Shown here: positions 50,603-62,049 of the stretch, one piece after another
How positions within the stretch are numbered: the stretch's first letter is position 1
Layout: every line of letters starts with the position of its first letter
NCBI GenBank assembly: GCA_002269645.1
Contig: NIVC01002567.1
Location: 62,001 to 126,000, forward strand
DNA: 64,000 nt
Direction of reading: 5' to 3'
Origin: Macrostomum lignano
Lineage: Eukaryota
Notes under the pieces: model-generated
Seen by the model: only the letters and a program-made list of their open reading frames with translations
What the model was told of the DNA's origin: nothing
Database searches by the model: none
Program-made: the position numbers and the translations under genes

Positions 50603-51166
50603 TCACACCCGCTGGAAGGCCAGCTGGCCTGTGCTTCTCTCGATATAGTCCAGCTCCCGCTTCATCTGGCACAGAGCGCAGGGCAGCGAGCAGCTGCTCG
50701 TTACGCAGCAGTCGTCGATGGCTCCGCCCGAGATGCCGTGGGCGGCGCGCAGTTTGGTGCGGTAGACCAGAGGCGCTGAGTGGCCGCACAGCGACAGGCA
50801 GAACGGGGCGCAGCAGCTCTCGCCCATTCTCGGCGACAGGCTGCAGCACAAGAAGCAGGGGGTGCACCAGGTGACCAGGCAGCAGGAGCTCATGTCCTCG
50901 CAGCAGCCGCAGAGACTCGTCGACCAGGTGCGCAGCTGGCGCGGCTGGTTAGTCACCACGTTGCCCAGGTTGACCATCACGTGGGTGCCGCCGCCACTGC
51001 CGCCACTTCTGTCCATGTTGACTGACGGCTGGTTGTAACCCACTCGGTAGGGATCCATGCCGGATGCCGTTGGCTGCTGCTGAGTCACCCAGTGCTGCTG
51101 CTGCTGCTGCTGGTCCTCGTCTTGGTCATACTTTGGCGGCGGAGCGGTCGGTTCGTAGCGAGCCAT
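50603..51166 (-). CDS. PLAC8/cornifelin family protein, paralog 1
   Basis: WSTSLCGCCEDMSSCCLVTWCTPC...GESCC...RTKLRAAHGISGGAIDDCC...CALCQMKREL; Gln/Pro-rich N-terminus; single coding exon. Confidence 0.92.
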   Translation of the reverse strand: MARYEPTAPPPKYDQDEDQQQQQQHWVTQQQPTASGMDPYRVGYNQPSVNMDRSGGSGGGTHVMVNLGNVVTNQPRQLRTWSTSLCGCCEDMSSCCLVTWCTPCFLCCSLSPRMGESCCAPFCLSLCGHSAPLVYRTKLRAAHGISGGAIDDCCVTSSCSLPCALCQMKRELDYIERSTGQLAFQRV

Positions 51167-51224
51167 GCTGCTTTCGGAGCTGCTGGGGCCGGGCGCGAAA
51201 AGGGGGACAGTGCTTTAACTGCGT

Positions 51225-51700: not shown

Positions 51701-53171
51701 ACTTGCCTAATAATTGTTGAATAAGTGAATACTAGACACAATCGAGAAGGAAATCCTACACAAACTTAAAAGGTGTCCGAGATCCAGGCAGGATTCACTG
51801 ACTCACTTTGCTGCGGTTCAATAATCAGTTCAGTTAAGTTCAGTTCGGACCAGTTGTGCATTTTAATAGCTTCTTCAAACATTTATTCTAATTCGCAACA
51901 ATCTCTATACTTTAGCTAACATGTATAGCAGTCTAGGACTCTGGCTCTGCAGTTTTTGTGAATTCGAATTTCCAAGAAATACGAGTGTTTCCAAGAAATG
52001 CGAATGCACACTGACTGACTAAGAGGTAACTGCAGTGTAGACACAAACAATTACAGATATGATATCTATCGAATGAATCAATGCCGTTGGCTCAAGGCTG
52101 ACGTTGGCTATAGTATTATAATCATACGGTGTTTATAACGGCATGCCTTAGTTTTACGACCTGAGATAACAGAAACAGAAAATATAAGATGAATTAGTTT
52201 TTAAATAGTTTTTTCTTGAAAGTCCAAGTCCAGGTCTCTCTATATCGCCTATAGGAGTAGATCATATGCGAAAAGAGAGGATTACAAAAATGAAGAGATC
52301 ACATCACATCTTACCTTCTTTGACTTTAGTTTATAACTTTAACTTGGCTTGACTGGTGGAACAAGTCCGGTAGCTAAATTTCCTGGAAATTGTGCTGGCT
52401 TGGCAGTCATTCCCCCTCAAGTTCCTCCAATATAAAGGCTGGTTCTCCGTCGTTCGCAAATGTACATACTCCCCACCCCACCCCCGCCCCAAATAAAGAT
52501 AAGTGAGGGCCGCCAATGTACATTGCAAATGCCCACGGACAAAGGCGGGCCCCGTTTTTTAAAGTTTTAATGTTACTAATAAACTTTTATATACGAGCGT
52601 ACTTATTATAGCTTGTTTTCTTGGCTGAAGTATATTATATTATAAAATAAATTAGAATAAGATGTCTGCGTAAGTTGTAGGGGAAGGTTTCACAAACCCG
52701 AATTTTCGCAATGTTGAAAGTTGTCTATAAACTTGGTCTGGCCACGTTAAAGCGAGCGTTAAATTGTCAACCCCAGCCTGTATATGGACATTCAATGTTA
52801 TCCTGCCGAGTGCGTTACTGTGGGCCATAGAGAGTGTGTGAATGCGGTTGCGGCCATAGACAAAAAGAGTAACTATGTTTTATCATAGAACTTAAACATA
52901 GAGACTGAATATATTATGACTGGAGGTAGTGTACGAGCTATACGACAATAACAAACCAAGCAATATAGAAAAAGAGTAATAGCACAATTGCGGCAGTGTG
53001 CGTAGCATAATTAATTCCCTTTAAAGATTATATAGATATAGATAATGAACCTGTAGTACTTATAAAAATGGCTGGCTGAAAGGCTATTGGCTATATTTTA
53101 AGGCTTATCACAATTCCCAAATAGTGCGCGACATACCCTAGATAGATAGCAACCCTTCGCTTCAACCTGCA

Positions 53172-54086
53172 TAGGGATTCCAAAATCCCGACATTTTACA
53201 ATCCCGGGATTGAATAGTCCCGAAATCCCGATGCTGTTGAAATCCCGGGATTCAAAATCCCGGAATCCCGGTGCTTTTGCAATCCCGGGATTAAAAATCC
53301 CGGGATTCGATTCCCAAAAAAATCCCGGGATTCAAATCCCGGATTTTTGGCCCCAATCCCGGGATCCCGGGATCCCGGGATTGGAATCCTAAGACGGACT
53401 GTGCGGCGTGCCGCGTGCAGTAGTCATGGTCTCGCGACTCTCAGAGTCTCAGGGCCTTTTCATATTACCAATTCCAGAACCAGAATCGGTTCGGAATTCC
53501 AAGAAAAACAGCAGTATAACTATTAAACTCTGTTAATATTTGACTGCCTTAACAGCCTCACTTTGCACGATTTTTCACTTTCTTCTTGGCGACTGTCATT
53601 CAATGATAAAAACTTTATAGCACGTATCTCCCTCTAGTTATGGAGACAAAAAGTTTATACTTCACAAATTGGTTCTGGTTCTGGAACCAGAACAAGCACT
53701 ATGAAAAGGCCCTCAGTCTCGTCTCGTGGTGGAAAACGAAAAAAAGTTAAAATTATCTATCATTTACAGTTCACATTAACAATTTTTAGCTCAATTAGGA
53801 CAGGAGCTTTGCAAAATGTTTAACGTTTCATTGAGAAACAGCAAAAACAAATAAATGTTTTATTATTCAAATAAACGTTTAGACTTTAAATTATCTAACT
53901 TAGGCATTGAAAGGTTGTTCTAATCCCGGACCAATCCCGGGATTAAGGCCTTGAAACCCCGGGATCCCGATCCCGGACTTTTGCAATCCCGGGATTAGAA
54001 ATCCCGGGATTCGATTCCCAAAAAAATCCCGGGATTCAAATCCCGGATTTTTGGCCCCAATCCCGGGATCCCGGGATTGGAATCCC
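53172..54086. mobile_element. Composite MITE cluster: two ATCCCGGGAT-palindrome elements (53172-53391; about 53920-54086) around a TIR element (53451-53713)
   Basis: Both outer copies share TTTTGCAATCCCGGGATT...TTGGAATCC. The inner element has AGGGCCTTTTCATA/TATGAAAAGGCCCT TIRs. The whole cluster is flanked by AACCTGCA at 53164-53171 and 54087-54094. Confidence 0.75.
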
Positions 54087-54665
54087 AACCTGCAACCTTG
54101 TCCAACCAACCAGCCAACGAACTAGTAGCTACTGCTAATATTAAAACCAACACTATACTACTAGTCTAATAAACGCTAGGAATATGTTATAACAATGGGT
54201 GTAAACAATAAGAAAGAGGGAGAGAACGAGCGACGATGCACAAACAGCACAACAACGCGCGCAATATGAGGCGCAGATTCATTGTAATTATGAGATGAAA
54301 ATATTGAAAAATATTGGGGCCTATATATAAAGGAGAGATGAGAAAGTTACAACAAAAAGAGCATTATCTAGATTTCACAATTACCAATTAATTAGTTATG
54401 TTAATAGCTACTTATTAATTAATTAATTTACCTCAAGAAACGCTCTAATTTTGCGACGTAAATCTTGTCTTAATTTTCTTTTGTGTAGTGTATAAAAACT
54501 CCAATTTTTTCTTTTCGTCTGTGATCTGGTCCCACATATTGTGACTTAAAAATGAGCCCCCATTTTGTGCTAGCTCTGTTCTGTATACATAGAGCGTTTC
54601 AATAGGTTCAATTTTATAATAATATTTTTATCGTTTATGGTCAAAGTTATCAATCAATTAAGTTC

Positions 54666-56220
54666 TTACTGATGTCGAGCTGATGTCGAGCAACAAAAAC
54701 CTCGACGATCTAGATGATGGCGATGGGGACATCTGCTCGATGCAGCTGGATGCCATGATTGTTGCCTGCCGACGCCGCCGCTTCTGATCCGCATAGGTTG
54801 TCGCCTGCGAAAGCGAAAGAAACGTCGACGCTGCACCGCTTTCATCTGGCCTGTCAACAACAATAGCGAGCTGCTGATCATCGACGGCGGCGGCGGCGGC
54901 GGCGGCAGCGGCGGCTTCATCCTCCGCCGAGATAGACTTTTGTGGCAGCGGCCTTCGACGACGTCTACTACCGGAAGGTGGCTGCTGACGATGCTCAGAT
55001 TGCTTTTTTTGTTGTTGTTGTTGTTGTTGTTGTTGTTTTTGTTGTCTAGATATAGAACTGGCTTCAGCAGCAGCATCAGCGGCGCCGCGGCGGCGGTACG
55101 TCCAGCCACCAGAGCAGCAATCGTCGCCTGCATATTGGTCTTATTGGACAACATAGAGTCCGTGGCATAATGCCTAAACAGCATGGCCTCCGACGTCTCC
55201 ATCAGGCTGGCTAGTGATCTTGTCAGCACAGGATGACTGGCGGTCAAGATGGTCGTTTTGGAGCTGCGGAACACTGTCGGCCCTACGCCTCTGCGATTTA
55301 ACAGGCGGGCAGCGTGCGATTCCACCGCGTGGCTGTATGTGCTGACTGACATCTTCTTGCCAGCACGCGTACAAAATACAAACGGAGATGCGGCGGCGGC
55401 AGCGGCGAATGCAGACGAAGAAGCAGCGGCTGTCAGCGAATAGCGCCATGACCGCAGCAACTCAAAGAATGCAGTTGGCACGATTGTCCATCCGGTAGAC
55501 ACTGTCGGGTTGAATGTAATCCCAGCGCAGTCCAATCCATGGCCGAATGCGTTGCGGATGCTGCATAGTCGCATGCATGACCAATCTGTTGCGCCCGCTG
55601 CTGTTGCTGCTTGGCGCGAGCAGATCAACGCAGTCAGCTAGGACAATGCGCCATTCGCCATCAGTTAGCCGCTTCTTGCGCTTTTTAGCGTGATGCTCCG
55701 GTGCGTCGAGCTTGTAGCGAAAGTCGTGCGTCTGACGCAGTGTGCGCATTCGTTTCGAAAACATGGCGCACCGCTCGCTCAGCACGACAGTCAGCTCGAT
55801 CGGCAGCTGCATCCAACCGCCCATGTAGTGGCGATGTTTGCCGGGATCATACTCGACGAACATTTCAATAAATTTCATGCACTTTATCAGCGCCTCGGAA
55901 CGGTTGCGCACAGTCCCGCTGCTCGTACTGGTGCGCGACAGCTCGGCGGCAGCCTCCGACGGCTCGGCCAGACAATACTCAAAGTCGCGCCGATGGTGAA
56001 GCTGACGCGCTCGAGAGATGTTGGCCTGCAGGTTGTCAGCGTCGAGATCGACAGCGGCCGCCGCCACAGTTTCAGCATATGCCACCGACGCAATTTTGTC
56101 AAACAGGAACACTAACAGGCGCAGCAGGGCGTCCAGCGCATCGCAGTAGCCGTCAATATCGGGATCACGGATGCCGGTGGATGGGTACCAGTAAAGATAC
56201 TCTATCGCCTGTTGTCGCCG
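54666..56220 (-). pseudogene. Tyrosine recombinase-like gene, frameshifted
   Basis: Helical N-terminal region; box I-like QRIRPWIGLRWDYI (about 55554-55513); after a frame change IVPTAFFELLRSWR, FVFCTRAG, GPTVFRSSKTT (box II Arg) and LASLMETSEAMLFRHYA (Tyr at 55169-55167). Confidence 0.65.
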
Positions 56221-56671
56221 CAGTAAGCCGACAGCACGGGGGATGCCCGTTTGACTCGGGGAAGCGGCGGCGGCGGCGGCGGCGGCAGCGGGATAGCGGA
56301 TAATGCAGGCGTAGCCGCCGCCAAAGCCGAAGGCGCAGGTGGAGCCGCTGACTGAGGCGCAGGTGGAGCCAATGATGAAGCTGCTGCCAGCGCAGGCCGA
56401 GCCGCCTCCGGTGCCATGTCCTCAACAGCCGCTGCCGCCGGTGTGCCAGTCGACAATAACAGACGGGCATGCTTCTTGGCGTGCTTCGCAGCATCCCTGT
56501 ACCACATAGCACGCTCCGCGAAATATTTCTCGGCGCGATCAGAGCGCGTCGCGGCCGCTTCTTCGGCTGGGCGAAGGATCAGGCGCCGCCAGTGCCACGT
56601 CGTCGCCAGGGGTTAGCGAAATGGGCGGCAACGCCTCCTCGCTGTTTCCGGACGCACGGAGCCCCCTGCAG

Positions 56672-56917
56672 CTAAGTCAAGTCAAAGAAGTGCCACGTCG
56701 TTCGCTGCAGCGGCGTCCAGGTGGCCACACTACTCGCCACCGTGCCTGCAGATGAATTAATTGATGCATCCTGGCACCAGACGGCATGCTTGGCGAAAAA
56801 GTGCCGCTTTAGAGTGTCGACTCGAGGCGTCGCGTAATTACAACCTTCGATTGGACAGGGCCTGGCCGTCGGCTTAGCAGATTTCTGCTGCTTCGGAACC
56901 GTGCTGACCGACGCCAC
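56672..56917 (-). pseudogene. C2H2 zinc-finger ORF, probably the 5' part of the recombinase gene
   Basis: CPIEGCNYATPRVDTLKRHFFAKH = C-x4-C-x12-H-x4-H; begins at GTG; followed by a broken Pro/Ala-rich linker (56507-56202). Confidence 0.6.
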
Positions 56918-57029
56918 CGCAGAGATGCCTGAGCACGCGTGAGAGAGATATATATTGCGCTCTTATACAGCGAATAATAATTAAAAGCGTGACCATAAAC
57001 AAAACAAAAATTTCAAGACAGATATAACG

Positions 57030-57746
57030 CACCAGGAACGGCACATGGCCCGCATATATGATACTGCCGACCCATTTGCTCTGCACATGGGCCTTGTGCT
57101 TTGCGTTTATGACAAATCTATCCCTATTCATGAGCAGCAGAAGCTGCCCCTTGCCGCCTGTGCCGGCTGCAGTTCATCAAAGAATAGGCACTGTGTATGC
57201 CTAATTTTAATCCGTCGAACGGAAAGGCTTCGGAGAGTCTGGCGCGTAGACAGTCTCTCGGCCGAAATGTAAGCCGACCATCGCCGACTTGCCCACTCCA
57301 CTGGGGCCCCACAAAAAAATTATTGTTGGAACAGCCAGTCCTTGTCGCATGGCTGTGCAAATTTCACGCTGTATTGCACAGGCGCCACCAAGCGACAGTC
57401 TCTGTGTGTCGTTGTTGCTACGCGACGCCGCATTTGATGTTGTCGTCGACGCCACGACAGCTGGAAATTGGCAGACGCCGCACATGCTTGGCCGTACCAG
57501 ATTGGCCGGCATGGGGCTGATGCCTAGCTCCTCCACCCGGATGCGGCGCATCATTTGGACAGAGCTGAAATAGTCCAGCGTCTGTCTAAGCAACAACGGA
57601 TGGCCGCACACTAGCTGCGGATCGTCGGGCCTCGGCTGCATGCAGCCCAAAGGGTGGGACATGGCCCACCGATACAACAACACATTCCTGGACAGGCAGC
57701 CGTCGTCAATGTCCGTGACGGCTGCTGTCGGGTCGTTAAGTGTCAC
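57030..57746 (-). pseudogene. Superfamily 3 helicase (CRESS Rep/picorna-like P-loop), in several frames
   Basis: Walker A IIFLWGPSGVGKS; PFDG; Walker B QCLFFDEL (frame not in the ORF track); B'/C-like LLLLMNRDRFVINAKHKAHVQSKWVGSIIYAGHVP. Confidence 0.72.
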
Positions 57747-57849
57747 GCGGCGTATCTCCGCGTGTGCACTCTGTACACTCCCGATCTCAGCATTTGTCCA
57801 CCCTTTAGCGGCGAACGCGTCCTCCCTGGGCCCCGACGCAAACAGCCTA

Positions 57850-58430
57850 TCAGATCTACTGTGCTATGTAGAAATTGCACAACACTGAACTTTCTCAAAC
57901 CTGAAATTAACGTCCACAGGGGACATAAGAAGGACTGGAAACTGTCCCCTATCGAAAATTCGACAATCGCTATCGGCGATGAAAGTCTCTCTGAGCCCGG
58001 GCAAGCGCACCCAGATGTACAAATTGAGATTTTTCCAAATCTACGCGCTGAGAACTTAATCAAGGTGCTGCGTGAGCAGTTGAAGAACCCTAGCTCAGCT
58101 GTCAAAGTGGTCATTCTCTTCCCTTGTGGTCATGACCTGTCGAGACAATTTGAAGGTTTCCAATTTCCAACAACAATCGTGAATCATTGTCGCAAGGCCT
58201 TTCCAGAGACAAACATCTACACACTTGACTCAGTGGTGGATGTCGAGGCAACGGACAGCGTCCGAAGCAACGTGGACAAATTGAACCGCCATGCGCGGAA
58301 TCTCAACCAGCAGGGGCACGTGTCACTACCCAGACAGGGTTTGACCTTCCTGTCAGACAAGGTTACACTATCTGACCAATCGGCCTTGGAGGTCTTCAGG
58401 ATTGTCTATGGCAAAGTGCAAAAAGACTAG
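57850..58430 (+). CDS. SGNH/GDSL esterase-like ORF of the Penelope-like element
   Basis: TIAIGDESL (GDS block), EIFPNLRAENL (FPG.R block), VVILFPCGHDL (GxND block), FLSDKVTL (DxxH block); separated from RT by TAG TAG in the same frame. Confidence 0.5.
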
Positions 58431-58442
58431 TAGGTTTTAGGA

Positions 58443-60699
58443 ATGCGGCCAGCAGCCAAGTCAAATTTATCAAATTATCGTCTCTCTGAATGCAAAACCG
58501 AAATTTTAGGAATGGGGAAGAACTTTGTGCCAGCCCCAATTATTATGGGGTCCAGCGTCCTTTCTGACTCCATCAAGGTTTTCAAGCAGAGAATAGTGCT
58601 TAACTTCCTGCTTCAGCGTCGCACGTGTGCTTTCACCCCGCGCACCCCTTTTACTGGCCGAGCTTCAATCCCCAACATCAACTTGGACAAGTGGCGCTCT
58701 CACAGAGACCTTTTTGAAAGCCTAGACAAGATCAGAATTCCAAGAATCATACACAACAAGCCAAACCTTCAGGAGCAGCAGAGAATGGCACTGAAGATTC
58801 TTCGAGACAAAAGCAGTATCGTCATTAAACCTGCCGACAAGGGCAGCAATATGGTCGTTATGAATCGAACTGATTACATACTGGAAGCTAACAGACAGCT
58901 CTCCAACAGGACCTTCTACCAACCCCTAGACACTGCAATGAGCGCCCAGACCAGTGCCATTATCAAAGCCATTTTTCAAGATCTTAAAGAAGAAAAGATA
59001 ATTACTAATCATCAATACTCGCAACTGATTCCACCGTCTATTCCTAGAGATCGAATTTTTTTACCTCTTGCCAAAAATTCACAAGGATCCCGAAGAATGG
59101 CCTACTCCTGGAGTGCCTCCTGGGAGACCCATTGTCTCAGTCTGCAGCTCGGAAAGCTACATGAGCGCCAAATTTATCGATCTCTTTCTACAGCCGATCG
59201 CTATGGAATAAGACTCCTTCATCCGAGACACGGACCACTTTCAAGCGGCTATCAATGATTTGATTTTTGAAAAAGACGAAAATGTATTTCTGGTTACAAT
59301 GGATGTTGAATCCCTGTACACCAATATACCCACTGATAAGGGGATGGATGCCATTAGAGATGCCTTTCAAAAATTTCCCCAAACCTCAAGGACAGATAAT
59401 CATCTTCTTGCGCTCCTGGATATTAACTTGAACAAAAATGATTTTGTTTTTAACGACACGCGCTATCTTCAAGTCAAAGGCACAAGCATGGGAAAGTCAT
59501 TTGCGCCATCCTACGCCACCATCTTTATGTCTGCCTGGCAATCCAAAGCTTTAGAAGCTGCTCCGTTTACCCCTCGTTCTTCAAGCGCTACATTGACGAA
59601 ATTTTTATGGTTTTCGTCGGCACTGAAGTCGAACTAAAGGAGATGCACAGGCATCTGAATGAGTTCGATAGCAACACCCGACTCAAGATGCAATACAGCA
59701 GAGAAAAGGTTCACTTCCTGGACTGTTGTGTCAGTCTGGCTGACGGAGGGAGGCAACAGCAACAAGAGACTTTCGTGCTCAATCTACTTCAAACCCACCG
59801 ATTCACGCCAGCTCTTACATCCGGGATCTTTTCACTCAAAGCACACATTCAAAGGTATACTGAAATCTCAGTTCCTCCGTTACGCTCGCCGTTGCACATT
59901 TAAAGAAGACTTCGATGAGGCCAGCAGCAGCTTAACAAGCATCCTGAAGAATCAAGGATATTCTGTCCGCTTAATCAGGGATGCCAAGAAATCTGCTCTC
60001 ATCCAGCTAGGCTTCTACATTGATGGTCGGTGGGAGTTCGGCTTCCAGGATTGTGGCAATCTAAGCTGCCGTCCTTGCAGAGAGCACGGGCCTTTGGCCA
60101 AGTTTGTTTAGGGTCCAGCGCTACAAATATGATTTACAAAATTTGTCAAAAAGTCCGCAGGAATGTGGTGTATGCCATTCTGTGCAAGACTTGCAATGAC
60201 CGCTGTATCTACGTAGGTGAGACTGGAGGCGCTCTTAAAGTCAGACTTCAGGCTCACCTGAGCGACATCAGACTGGCTAAGGACACCCCAATCTCCAGGC
60301 ACTTTCGGTCACCAAACCACAATATTCAGGACCTCCGCTTTATGGGTCTGTGGTACCTCAGTACTGAGTGCCTGGCCACTAAAGAGGGCGCTCAACGCAG
60401 GCGGAGGAATATGGAGCAGAAGCTCATCGCTTTACTATAGACTCAGACTCCAGCAGGCATAAACACCGTCATCACTGAAAAAAGACGCCTGCATCCCAAT
60501 AGTGATCCCTTTCACGGACCACTCTGGGCGAGTTGTTCATCAAATTCGCACGTCCATTTCAAACCACGCTGCAGAGCTGGACACGGCGGCCGTCTATTCT
60601 CGCTCACGCTCATTAAAGGACATTCTATGTCCATCCAATCTGCCCGCCGTAACTAATGGTCGATCCCAAAACTCAAACCTCTTTTCAGATGAGCACTAG
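58443..60699 (+). pseudogene. PLE reverse transcriptase and GIY-YIG endonuclease
   Basis: Frameshifts near 59060 (7 T), 59575, 59770 and 60105; in-frame stops at 59209 (TAA) and 60438; C-terminal IPF...YSRSRSLKDILCPS extension. Confidence 0.9.
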
Positions 60700-61431: not shown

Positions 61432-61962
61432 TCAACGGTGCCGCGCGAACGCCGGCTTTCCGGTGGTTTGCTCGATGAAGTCCAGCTCCCGCTTCATCTG
61501 GCACACGGAGCAGGCCATACAGCAGCCGGTGGTCACGCAGCAGTCCTCGATGGCGCCGCCTCGGATGCCGTGGGCGGCTCGCAGTTTGGTGCGGTAGACC
61601 AGCGAAGCCGACTGACCGGACAGCGACAGGCAGAACGGAGCGCAGCAGCTCTCGCCGAACCTGTGCGACAGGCAGCAGCACATGTAGCAGGGGCAGCACC
61701 AGTACACCAGGCAGCAGGATTCGAAGTCGTCAAAACAGCCGCAGACGCTTGACGACCAGTTGCGCAGTCCATCGGCAGATTGGCCTACGTACAGCTGCTG
61801 GGAGACGACCGTCATTTGGTAACCGGCACTCCCTGCTGACTGCTCATAACCAACCCTGTAGGGGTCGCTGCCGGCTCCCGGCATCGGCTGCTGCTGCTGC
61901 ACCTGCTGTGGCTGCTTCTGGATAACTCCATCTTCCTGCGGCGGCTGGGCGGCTTCGGCCAT
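61432..61962 (-). CDS. PLAC8/cornifelin family protein, paralog 2
   Basis: WSSSVCGCFDDFESCCLVYWCCPC...FGESCC...RTKLRAAHGIRGGAIEDCC...CSVCQMKREL; ATG at 61962. Confidence 0.92.
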   Translation of the reverse strand: MAEAAQPPQEDGVIQKQPQQVQQQQPMPGAGSDPYRVGYEQSAGSAGYQMTVVSQQLYVGQSADGLRNWSSSVCGCFDDFESCCLVYWCCPCYMCCCLSHRFGESCCAPFCLSLSGQSASLVYRTKLRAAHGIRGGAIEDCCVTTGCCMACSVCQMKRELDFIEQTTGKPAFARHR

Positions 61963-62049
61963 TGTGGTTCTTGACACGGTGGGTCGGGCTGGGGGCTGCA
62001 GTTGCGATCGCTTCAGTGGCTCTGGAGATAGATTGATGGATAGATTATT

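Follow-up and report, generated by a model that had tools for sequence, protein, structure and literature searches.

The Rep-like gene and its setting

The window, by which we mean the whole 64-kb stretch of Macrostomum lignano DNA analysed here, carries a 5'-truncated and internally deleted remnant of a larger element (52721-57872, minus strand; family W), traced by blastn to the copies C3789 and C1567 and by a tblastn map. Its first gene (57039-57872, minus; identity 94% with C3789 and 66% with the C1024 copy) is the remnant of a Rep-like gene, consisting of an HUH-derived domain without catalytic residues, a Cys-rich linker and an SF3 helicase. The preliminary description of the locus had reported helicase motifs in the correct order and SF3 spacing, dispersed over several frames, and this is what we find: all lie on the minus strand between 57045 and 57311, in three frames. 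They comprise Walker A (WGPSGVGKS, 57285-57311, by motif search), a PFDG motif (57211-57222), Walker B (CLFFDEL, 57170-57190, by motif and joint alignment), motif B' (57093-57143, with LLLLMNRD at 57120-57143 and INAKHK at 57093-57110) and motif C (IIYAGH, 57045-57062, by hhalign and joint alignment), in which His replaces Asn. With a helicase profile built from outside proteins (alignment A6, see below), the best six-frame domain of the entire window was 57057-57320 (iE 0.0014), the single other row having an iE of 0.052.

Between the N-terminal domain and the helicase, the linker contains Cys motifs conserved in the alignment of the element family (A5; 57357-57482, minus), which may form a Zn site. 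Further upstream lies a degenerate HUH motif III region (57729-57752, minus; profiles and joint alignment) with Arg at the position of the catalytic Tyr. The earlier view that the origin of the helicase is undecidable for want of its N-terminus has to be revised: about 185 codons of the N-terminal domain are present in the window (up to 57872), the rest is contained in other copies, and the protein is a Rep that has lost its nicking residues. The upstream exon and the gene start are missing from the window copy, and a Penelope-like retrotransposon (57871-60440, plus; RT and GIY-YIG, Pfam RVT_1 E 0.0015 and GIY-YIG E 0.00024) abuts the cut 5' side, outside the element. This retrotransposon has 43 matches in the genome; it shows an upstream 271-codon frame without Pfam match, and other copies of it occur in 4.5-kb tandem arrays. 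The idea that our element is nested within it was not supported.

At the other end of the gene, blastn revealed an internal deletion junction (57038-57040), where most of the spacer is gone together with the helicase tail and its Arg finger. It is followed by the second, recombinase-like gene of the element, which goes beyond the preliminary description. This gene starts with two zinc-finger-like motifs (56469-56857, minus), recognised by eye and matched only weakly by Pfam in other copies (E 0.03-0.05), and continues as a frameshifted tyrosine-recombinase-like gene (55167-56196, minus) in which a helical domain precedes the R, x-x-x-R and Y motifs. The 3' non-coding part received a later insertion of a CCCGGGAT-rich repeat (53152-54086; blastn gap versus C3789 and C1567). 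We place the 3' terminus of the element at about 52721 (52715-52730, minus). Among 10 loci, this end point is common to four different flank groups, with C1567 diverging earlier; C666 has its 3' junction in common with the window copy. Elsewhere in the window there are two PLAC8/cornifelin-like frames (50603-51214, minus, Pfam E 2e-15; about 61432-62000, minus, by eye), and minisatellite arrays are very dense in positions 1-50000, with 78 tandem-repeat rows over the whole window.

When the genome (764 Mb, 5269 contigs) was searched at the DNA level, nine matches were found. The sister copy C3789 (94-95% identical to the window) has the helicase half in a single frame, a copy at 67% retains a 367-codon open frame, and other copies of the element in the genome also keep open frames. 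Compared with C3789, the window shows single-base gaps near 57145, 57191 and 57236, corresponding to three frame breaks (57145-57236). As to whether such breaks are genuine indels or assembly errors, a question already raised in the preliminary description, those at 57145 and 57191 are real because short-read contigs of X2 and X3 (two studies) span both without difference, whereas that at 57236 is likely an assembly error since X1, X2 and X3 all differ from the window there at full depth; short-read contigs can drop a rare allele, and one of X1-X3 may be the assembly's own source. The window helicase copy is truly decayed. Contamination was rejected since the window junctions recur in short-read contigs of X1-X3, those at 57039 and 57872 being spanned with zero differences in all three. 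The short-read run X11, which we guess to be RNA, matches the sister copy type.

Relatives of the Rep-like protein and the loss of catalytic residues

Among 1.84 billion representatives, the best phmmer match was P0001, named a Macrostomum lignano hypothetical protein and 100% identical in this genome. Of the 12 proteins found in this search, a further eight (P0002-P0008 and P0010) are metagenomic and of the same type, two (P0009 and P0012) are Reps with intact HUH motifs and one (P0011) is an ordinary CRESS Rep. In the Atlas ranking, unnamed clusters (one mostly bacterial, two rotifer-rich) were followed by CRESS Rep clusters (0.93). Pfam gave weak P-loop matches only for the broken pieces of the window, and RNA_helicase at E 0.07 for an open copy. 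Word-indexed protein searches with the Rep-like protein found nothing further, and scans of viral and metagenome contigs yielded no element locus and one distant genomovirus-like contig.

P0012 in turn led to 82 proteins encoded on contigs of about 1-3 kb, 68 of which were aligned (A6: P0009, P0012 and the P0018-P0097 group). The HUH His, Tyr and Lys are invariant in these proteins, and their Pfam matches (n=68) were DUF5906 (48), RNA_helicase (25), PPV_E1_C (16) and Gemini_AL1 (11); the best PDB match of A6 was AAV Rep, that of the element family profile (A5) the Rep 9pqj (E 0.003). In hhalign, A5 and A6 aligned across 246 columns that begin at motif II and end with the helicase (probability 99.5, E 2.5e-22). 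On open-frame relatives, the A6 helicase profile scored 35-50 bits, while none of 20 shuffles per protein exceeded 2 bits. An A6 profile confined to the N-terminal part matched 7/7 family proteins tested (5-24 bits, above their own shuffles), and with a profile of the HUH core only, P0005 alone scored, weakly. Judged by these alignments and profile scores, the nearest full-length relatives of the element Rep are the unnamed, HUH-intact proteins of A6, possibly an unclassified ssDNA virus lineage with parvovirus/papillomavirus-like helicases. The helicase tree unites ten family rows (94/84; drawn open, with no papovavirus or parvovirus rows); long branches make its link to CRESS or A6 unreliable, and its genomovirus-like row is probably mis-cut. 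The AlphaFold model of the Rep, made from a single sequence, was poor (pLDDT 33).

The assignment as a viral-type SF3 helicase proposed earlier is thus borne out, with a CRESS-type Rep affinity seen by Atlas, phmmer, PDB and hhalign. The best matches are not host AAA+ proteins, the outcome that would have spoken against a viral-type helicase, and we rejected a host AAA+ identity since the phmmer and hhalign matches are Rep-type. Of the label "circovirus-Rep-like", the CRESS-type relation stands, but the term is too narrow: A6 is nearest, and its helicases also match papillomavirus E1 (16/68) and AAV Rep.

A joint alignment of 55 A6 rows and 15 family rows, some of them partial, revealed how the element proteins depart from this lineage. 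The catalytic Tyr is present in 55/55 A6 rows and in 0/8 family rows with a residue at this position, which have R, S, W or K instead; the first HUH His is found in 55/55 versus 0/6 rows, the second is kept in 3/6 family rows, and the Lys partner of the catalytic Tyr is gone as well. The two metagenomic relatives that cover the Tyr site (P0005 and P0010) also lack it. Loss of the Tyr predates decay because it is common to families 30-70% identical and to the metagenomic relatives. From these replacements, the DNA-nicking (HUH) domain of the element Rep is likely disabled. We did not find the first half of the HUH fold (motif I). The upstream exon gave no match, and as a candidate for motif I it gained no support (57-200 of 200 shuffles score equally; hhalign probability 0.1); its terminal "IGE", considered as a conserved Glu, is the splice donor read in frame.

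In the helicase, Walker A, Walker B and B' are kept in the element family within about 100 residues, and the Arg finger, deleted in the window copy, is kept in 8/8 family rows that reach it. The replacement of the motif C Asn, pointed out in the preliminary description, is real and not peculiar to the window: flatworm rows read AGH and P0002 also has His, whereas Asn is found in 54/55 A6 rows. Helicase activity of the element protein is therefore not certain. Comparison of Rep genes gave dN 0.18-0.48 versus dS 1.5 or saturated, and for the N-terminal domain (A-C) a dN of 0.43 and a dS of 2.4; the Rep gene, including the N-terminal domain, is under purifying selection.

Element families, the second gene and insertion sites

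The element forms a multi-family set of dispersed units of about 8-9.5 kb with low copy numbers (tens); where both ends are present, the unit length is about 9.5 kb in family A, 8.1 kb in C and 7.9 kb in D. We mapped the window and 60 tiles (10 kb each) and obtained 23 Rep loci, at 12 of which, representing five diverged families, a whole or partial zinc-finger/recombinase-like gene lies within about 8 kb; these locus counts are not independent because several loci are duplicates of one insertion, and the pairing is known from one genome only. The two genes have the same orientation in families A (C1024), B (C2956, C3789, C491), C (C957, C1267) and W (window, C3789) and in a further C1267 copy, and are convergent in family D (C150, C283, C1938), whose Rep is about 30% identical to that of A and whose recombinase is 27% identical to that of C (E 2e-8). 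At the other 11/23 loci (six of family E, C84, C2869, two truncated, one at a contig end) no recombinase was seen in the tiles examined, and for the family E loci, C84 and C2869 it was also absent by profile, with the positive control working. Recombinase matches are frequent in copies without a nearby Rep.

In all five families the upstream exon ends in GTGAGT, and an in-phase AG precedes the Rep frame. This defines a phase-1 GT-AG intron at the same place, 81-376 nt long in four families by script and placed by eye in the fifth. Between families, the only conserved frames are the Rep exons and the zinc-finger recombinase. No capsid was detected among conserved frames or by Pfam in the frames scanned inside the ends, where a divergent or family-specific capsid could escape; nor did conserved frames and Pfam reveal a second P-loop gene, packaging ATPase, primase or polymerase. 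Some arrangements deserve mention. In family E (L071:6499-8607, C267, C2362, C1811, C1874) the Rep is extended by a long stretch at its N-terminus, and an intron interrupts its helicase; the family adjoins a non-LTR-like insertion and tandem arrays, and C267 holds two copies about 19.4 kb apart. At C3789:53500-93200 (L014-L018; duplicates C2956 and C796) three element pieces of different families lie within 40 kb, and C1267 has two pieces within 12 kb. Upstream of the sister copy there is a ubiquitin C-terminal hydrolase frame (L018:5671-6189, minus; Pfam UCH E 5e-11).

In tyrosine recombinases, the canonical residues occur in the order R-K-H-x-x-R-H/W-Y. In the second gene we find R, K, x-x-x-R, Y, placed by eye, and both catalytic His positions hold Thr or Asn; R-H-R-Y is named as the recombinase motif in the part of PMC3212892 concerned. 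The Atlas match of the second protein (0.94) is a cluster in which 17% of the members have Phage_integrase, and 144/256 features are in common. The AlphaFold model was poor (pLDDT 42); in Foldseek searches with the second protein no row reached E 0.001, all 17 rows shown to rank 23 were XerH, Cre or Tn1549 Int (E 0.01-0.2, TM about 0.2), and the top row of the viral set was an integrase. VIA re-alignment returned helical hairpins only, and Pfam, PHROGs and PDB sequence searches as well as plasmid tblastn gave no recombinase match. DUF3504 is absent from the element recombinase by Pfam (positive control, a Crypton of the same genome, 4.7e-21), and in tile mapping a Crypton query does not match it. 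On the strength of the motifs and the weak structure matches, we consider it very probable that the second gene encodes a tyrosine recombinase.

The ends of family A form a 9-bp terminal inverted repeat, family C has one start point with three different left flanks, and short tandem repeats lie just inside the element ends. A true empty allele was found at one of three sites analysed (C957). Its flank is a repeat, five empty copies of which read GC|AAACTT (2/5) or GC|AAACTA (3/5); the filled site reads GC-TATCTT...GC-AAACTT. Only 2 bp are repeated there, and the 8-bp core is imperfect. An imperfect core without target duplication is as expected of the integration of a circle by a tyrosine recombinase. 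The other two sites (C283 and C1024) gave no empty allele, their left flank being a Crypton end; the left end of the element lies there within a few bases of the Crypton terminus. Crypton-type recombinase genes adjoin element ends at L011/L131 (C1024, about 127597) and L065/L125 (C283, about 524583), and further ones at L064 (C150, 337218), L027 (C491, 389597-389934) and L059 (C1267, 157065). Crypton matches occur in 8/60 element tiles versus 0/15 arbitrary tiles, an association that is weak when counted by tile and striking where the junctions are concerned. Each of the two recombinase systems may target the ends of the other.

Proposed mode of replication and comparison with known systems

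We propose that these loci represent a capsid-less two-gene element in which recombinase-mediated excision and integration would alternate with papovavirus-like, helicase-dependent replication of a dsDNA circle, and assign this reading, which includes the presumed replication, circles and enzyme activities, a probability of roughly 0.6. The zinc-finger recombinase would join both ends across the core of about 8 bp and thereby excise a circle. The spliced Rep protein would bind the short subterminal repeats with its dead HUH domain, acting as an origin-binding domain as in E1 and LT, and its SF3 ring would melt the circle DNA for host Pol alpha-primase and polymerases, so that the circle is copied by theta rather than rolling-circle replication. 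Finally, the recombinase would insert copies at chromosomal sites with a partly matching core.

The low copy numbers do not by themselves demand replication, and they would suit a non-replicating, Crypton-like tyrosine-recombinase transposon whose Rep-derived gene has an accessory role in excision, recombination or end binding. Such a transposon would explain the ends and the empty site equally well, and the altered motif C and the many recombinase copies without a Rep nearby are in line with it. We nevertheless regard it as unlikely, since purifying selection at saturated dS has preserved Walker A, Walker B, B' and the Arg finger, family E keeps the Rep with no detectable recombinase, and an origin-binding domain joined to an SF3 helicase is a known initiator layout according to the relevant part of PMC6668415. 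Packaging by a helper is the alternative suggested by the closest HUH-intact relatives, which are found on contigs of 1-3 kb, a CRESS-like size: the loci could be integrated copies of a DNA virus or satellite that is helper-dependent or multipartite and has its capsid encoded elsewhere. Related proteins are present in environmental data, and Polinton-like viruses combine Reps, SF3 helicases and recombinases in various ways, as stated in portions of recent preprints. Yet the interval between the ends contains neither an additional conserved frame nor a capsid match by Pfam, the viral contigs scanned hold no relative, and the insertions are dispersed, low-copy and equipped with host-type introns, which makes a packaged genome rather improbable.

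Two further readings concern the Rep gene itself. Endogenous rep genes are common and the window copy is broken, as would be an ordinary CRESS-virus rep fragment that decayed after chance integration next to an unrelated recombinase. This is the least probable explanation and already largely refuted: loss of the Tyr predates the decay, the gene is under purifying selection, and the same neighbour recurs in five families with sharp common ends. Alternatively, a different tyrosine or an active site that has moved, possibly into the upstream exon, might still allow the Rep to start rolling-circle replication; we did not find the N-terminal half of the fold, the second His persists in 3/6 rows and there is no confident model. 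With R, S, W or K in the motif III column, the partner Lys lost and the first His lost in 6/6 rows, a relocated nickase seems very unlikely to us.

A broader view suggests itself, to which we give somewhat less than even odds: the loci would be undescribed eukaryotic self-replicating integrative elements (animal integrative plasmids), in which a CRESS-type Rep independently made the papovavirus switch from nickase to origin-binding domain and from ssDNA rolling-circle to dsDNA theta replication, the capsid being lost or never present, and joined a new tyrosine recombinase. The metagenomic relatives without Tyr would then point to a wider and older lineage. HUH inactivation with retention of the SF3 helicase has been described as the step leading to papillomaviruses and polyomaviruses, with an obscure driving force (parts of PMC6668415 and of PMC13595969, section 7). 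A second case with close HUH-intact relatives, in a flatworm that is probably a laboratory model, would make this transition testable; one reason for the loss might be that nicking is dispensable once a recombinase takes over excision and insertion. It would also add a new DNA transposon group and a new recombinase targeting short cores in an animal. A group of elements combining a Rep helicase with a recombinase is apparently undescribed: the literature covered, including the pertinent parts of PMC10288648, PMC11071296, PMC11296320 and PMC12859917, contained no such description; Repbase, Dfam, supplements and subscription journals lie outside this coverage and may hold such families.

Compared with Reps of CRESS-DNA viruses (Cressdnaviricota), the element protein is collinear over motif II, the linker and the SF3 helicase, with A6 as the nearest group, but has lost the Tyr, the Lys and the first His, has the motif C Asn replaced and has gained Cys motifs. 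The element furthermore differs from these viruses by its introns, its recombinase partner, the lack of a detected capsid and an integrated unit of 8-9.5 kb. With papillomavirus E1 and polyomavirus LT (Papovaviricetes, the named case of HUH inactivation; PMC13595969, section 7) it has in common an inactivated HUH domain and an SF3 helicase, the inactivation being deduced here from sequence; it is integrated together with a recombinase, its frames scanned gave no L1/VP1 Pfam match, and its sequence affinity is to A6. The missing capsid match places the element outside the papovaviruses.

Polinton-like viruses likewise combine a recombinase with an SF3 helicase and sometimes an HUH or circovirus-like Rep; in the portions of two preprints concerned (bioRxiv 10.64898/2026.10.13.758929 and 10.64898/2026.06.19.733378), Rep-like nickases, SF3 helicases and recombinases are mixed within capsid-defined genomes. 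Our element is smaller, contains introns and has only two conserved genes, the capsid check having covered conserved frames and Pfam. Among eukaryotic transposons, Helitrons and Replitrons also have a Rep-derived protein, which in their case is an active HUH transposase, whereas the element Rep has no catalytic Tyr; in the sections of PMC10288648 concerned, Replitron-1 is without a fused helicase, Helitrons have an SF1 helicase and neither is given a recombinase. Rep genes are also carried by rotifer Terminons, as stated in part of PMC6431247. Because of the missing catalytic Tyr, we place the element outside the CRESS viruses, Helitrons and Replitrons. With Cryptons it has in common short imperfect terminal cores, no target duplication and a proposed circular intermediate, as far as these are covered in the corresponding part of PMC3212892, in whose main text the word "helicase" occurs 0 times. 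The absence from its recombinase of DUF3504, the domain of animal Crypton recombinases, sets it outside the Cryptons, from which it is further distinguished by the presence of an initiator-helicase gene.
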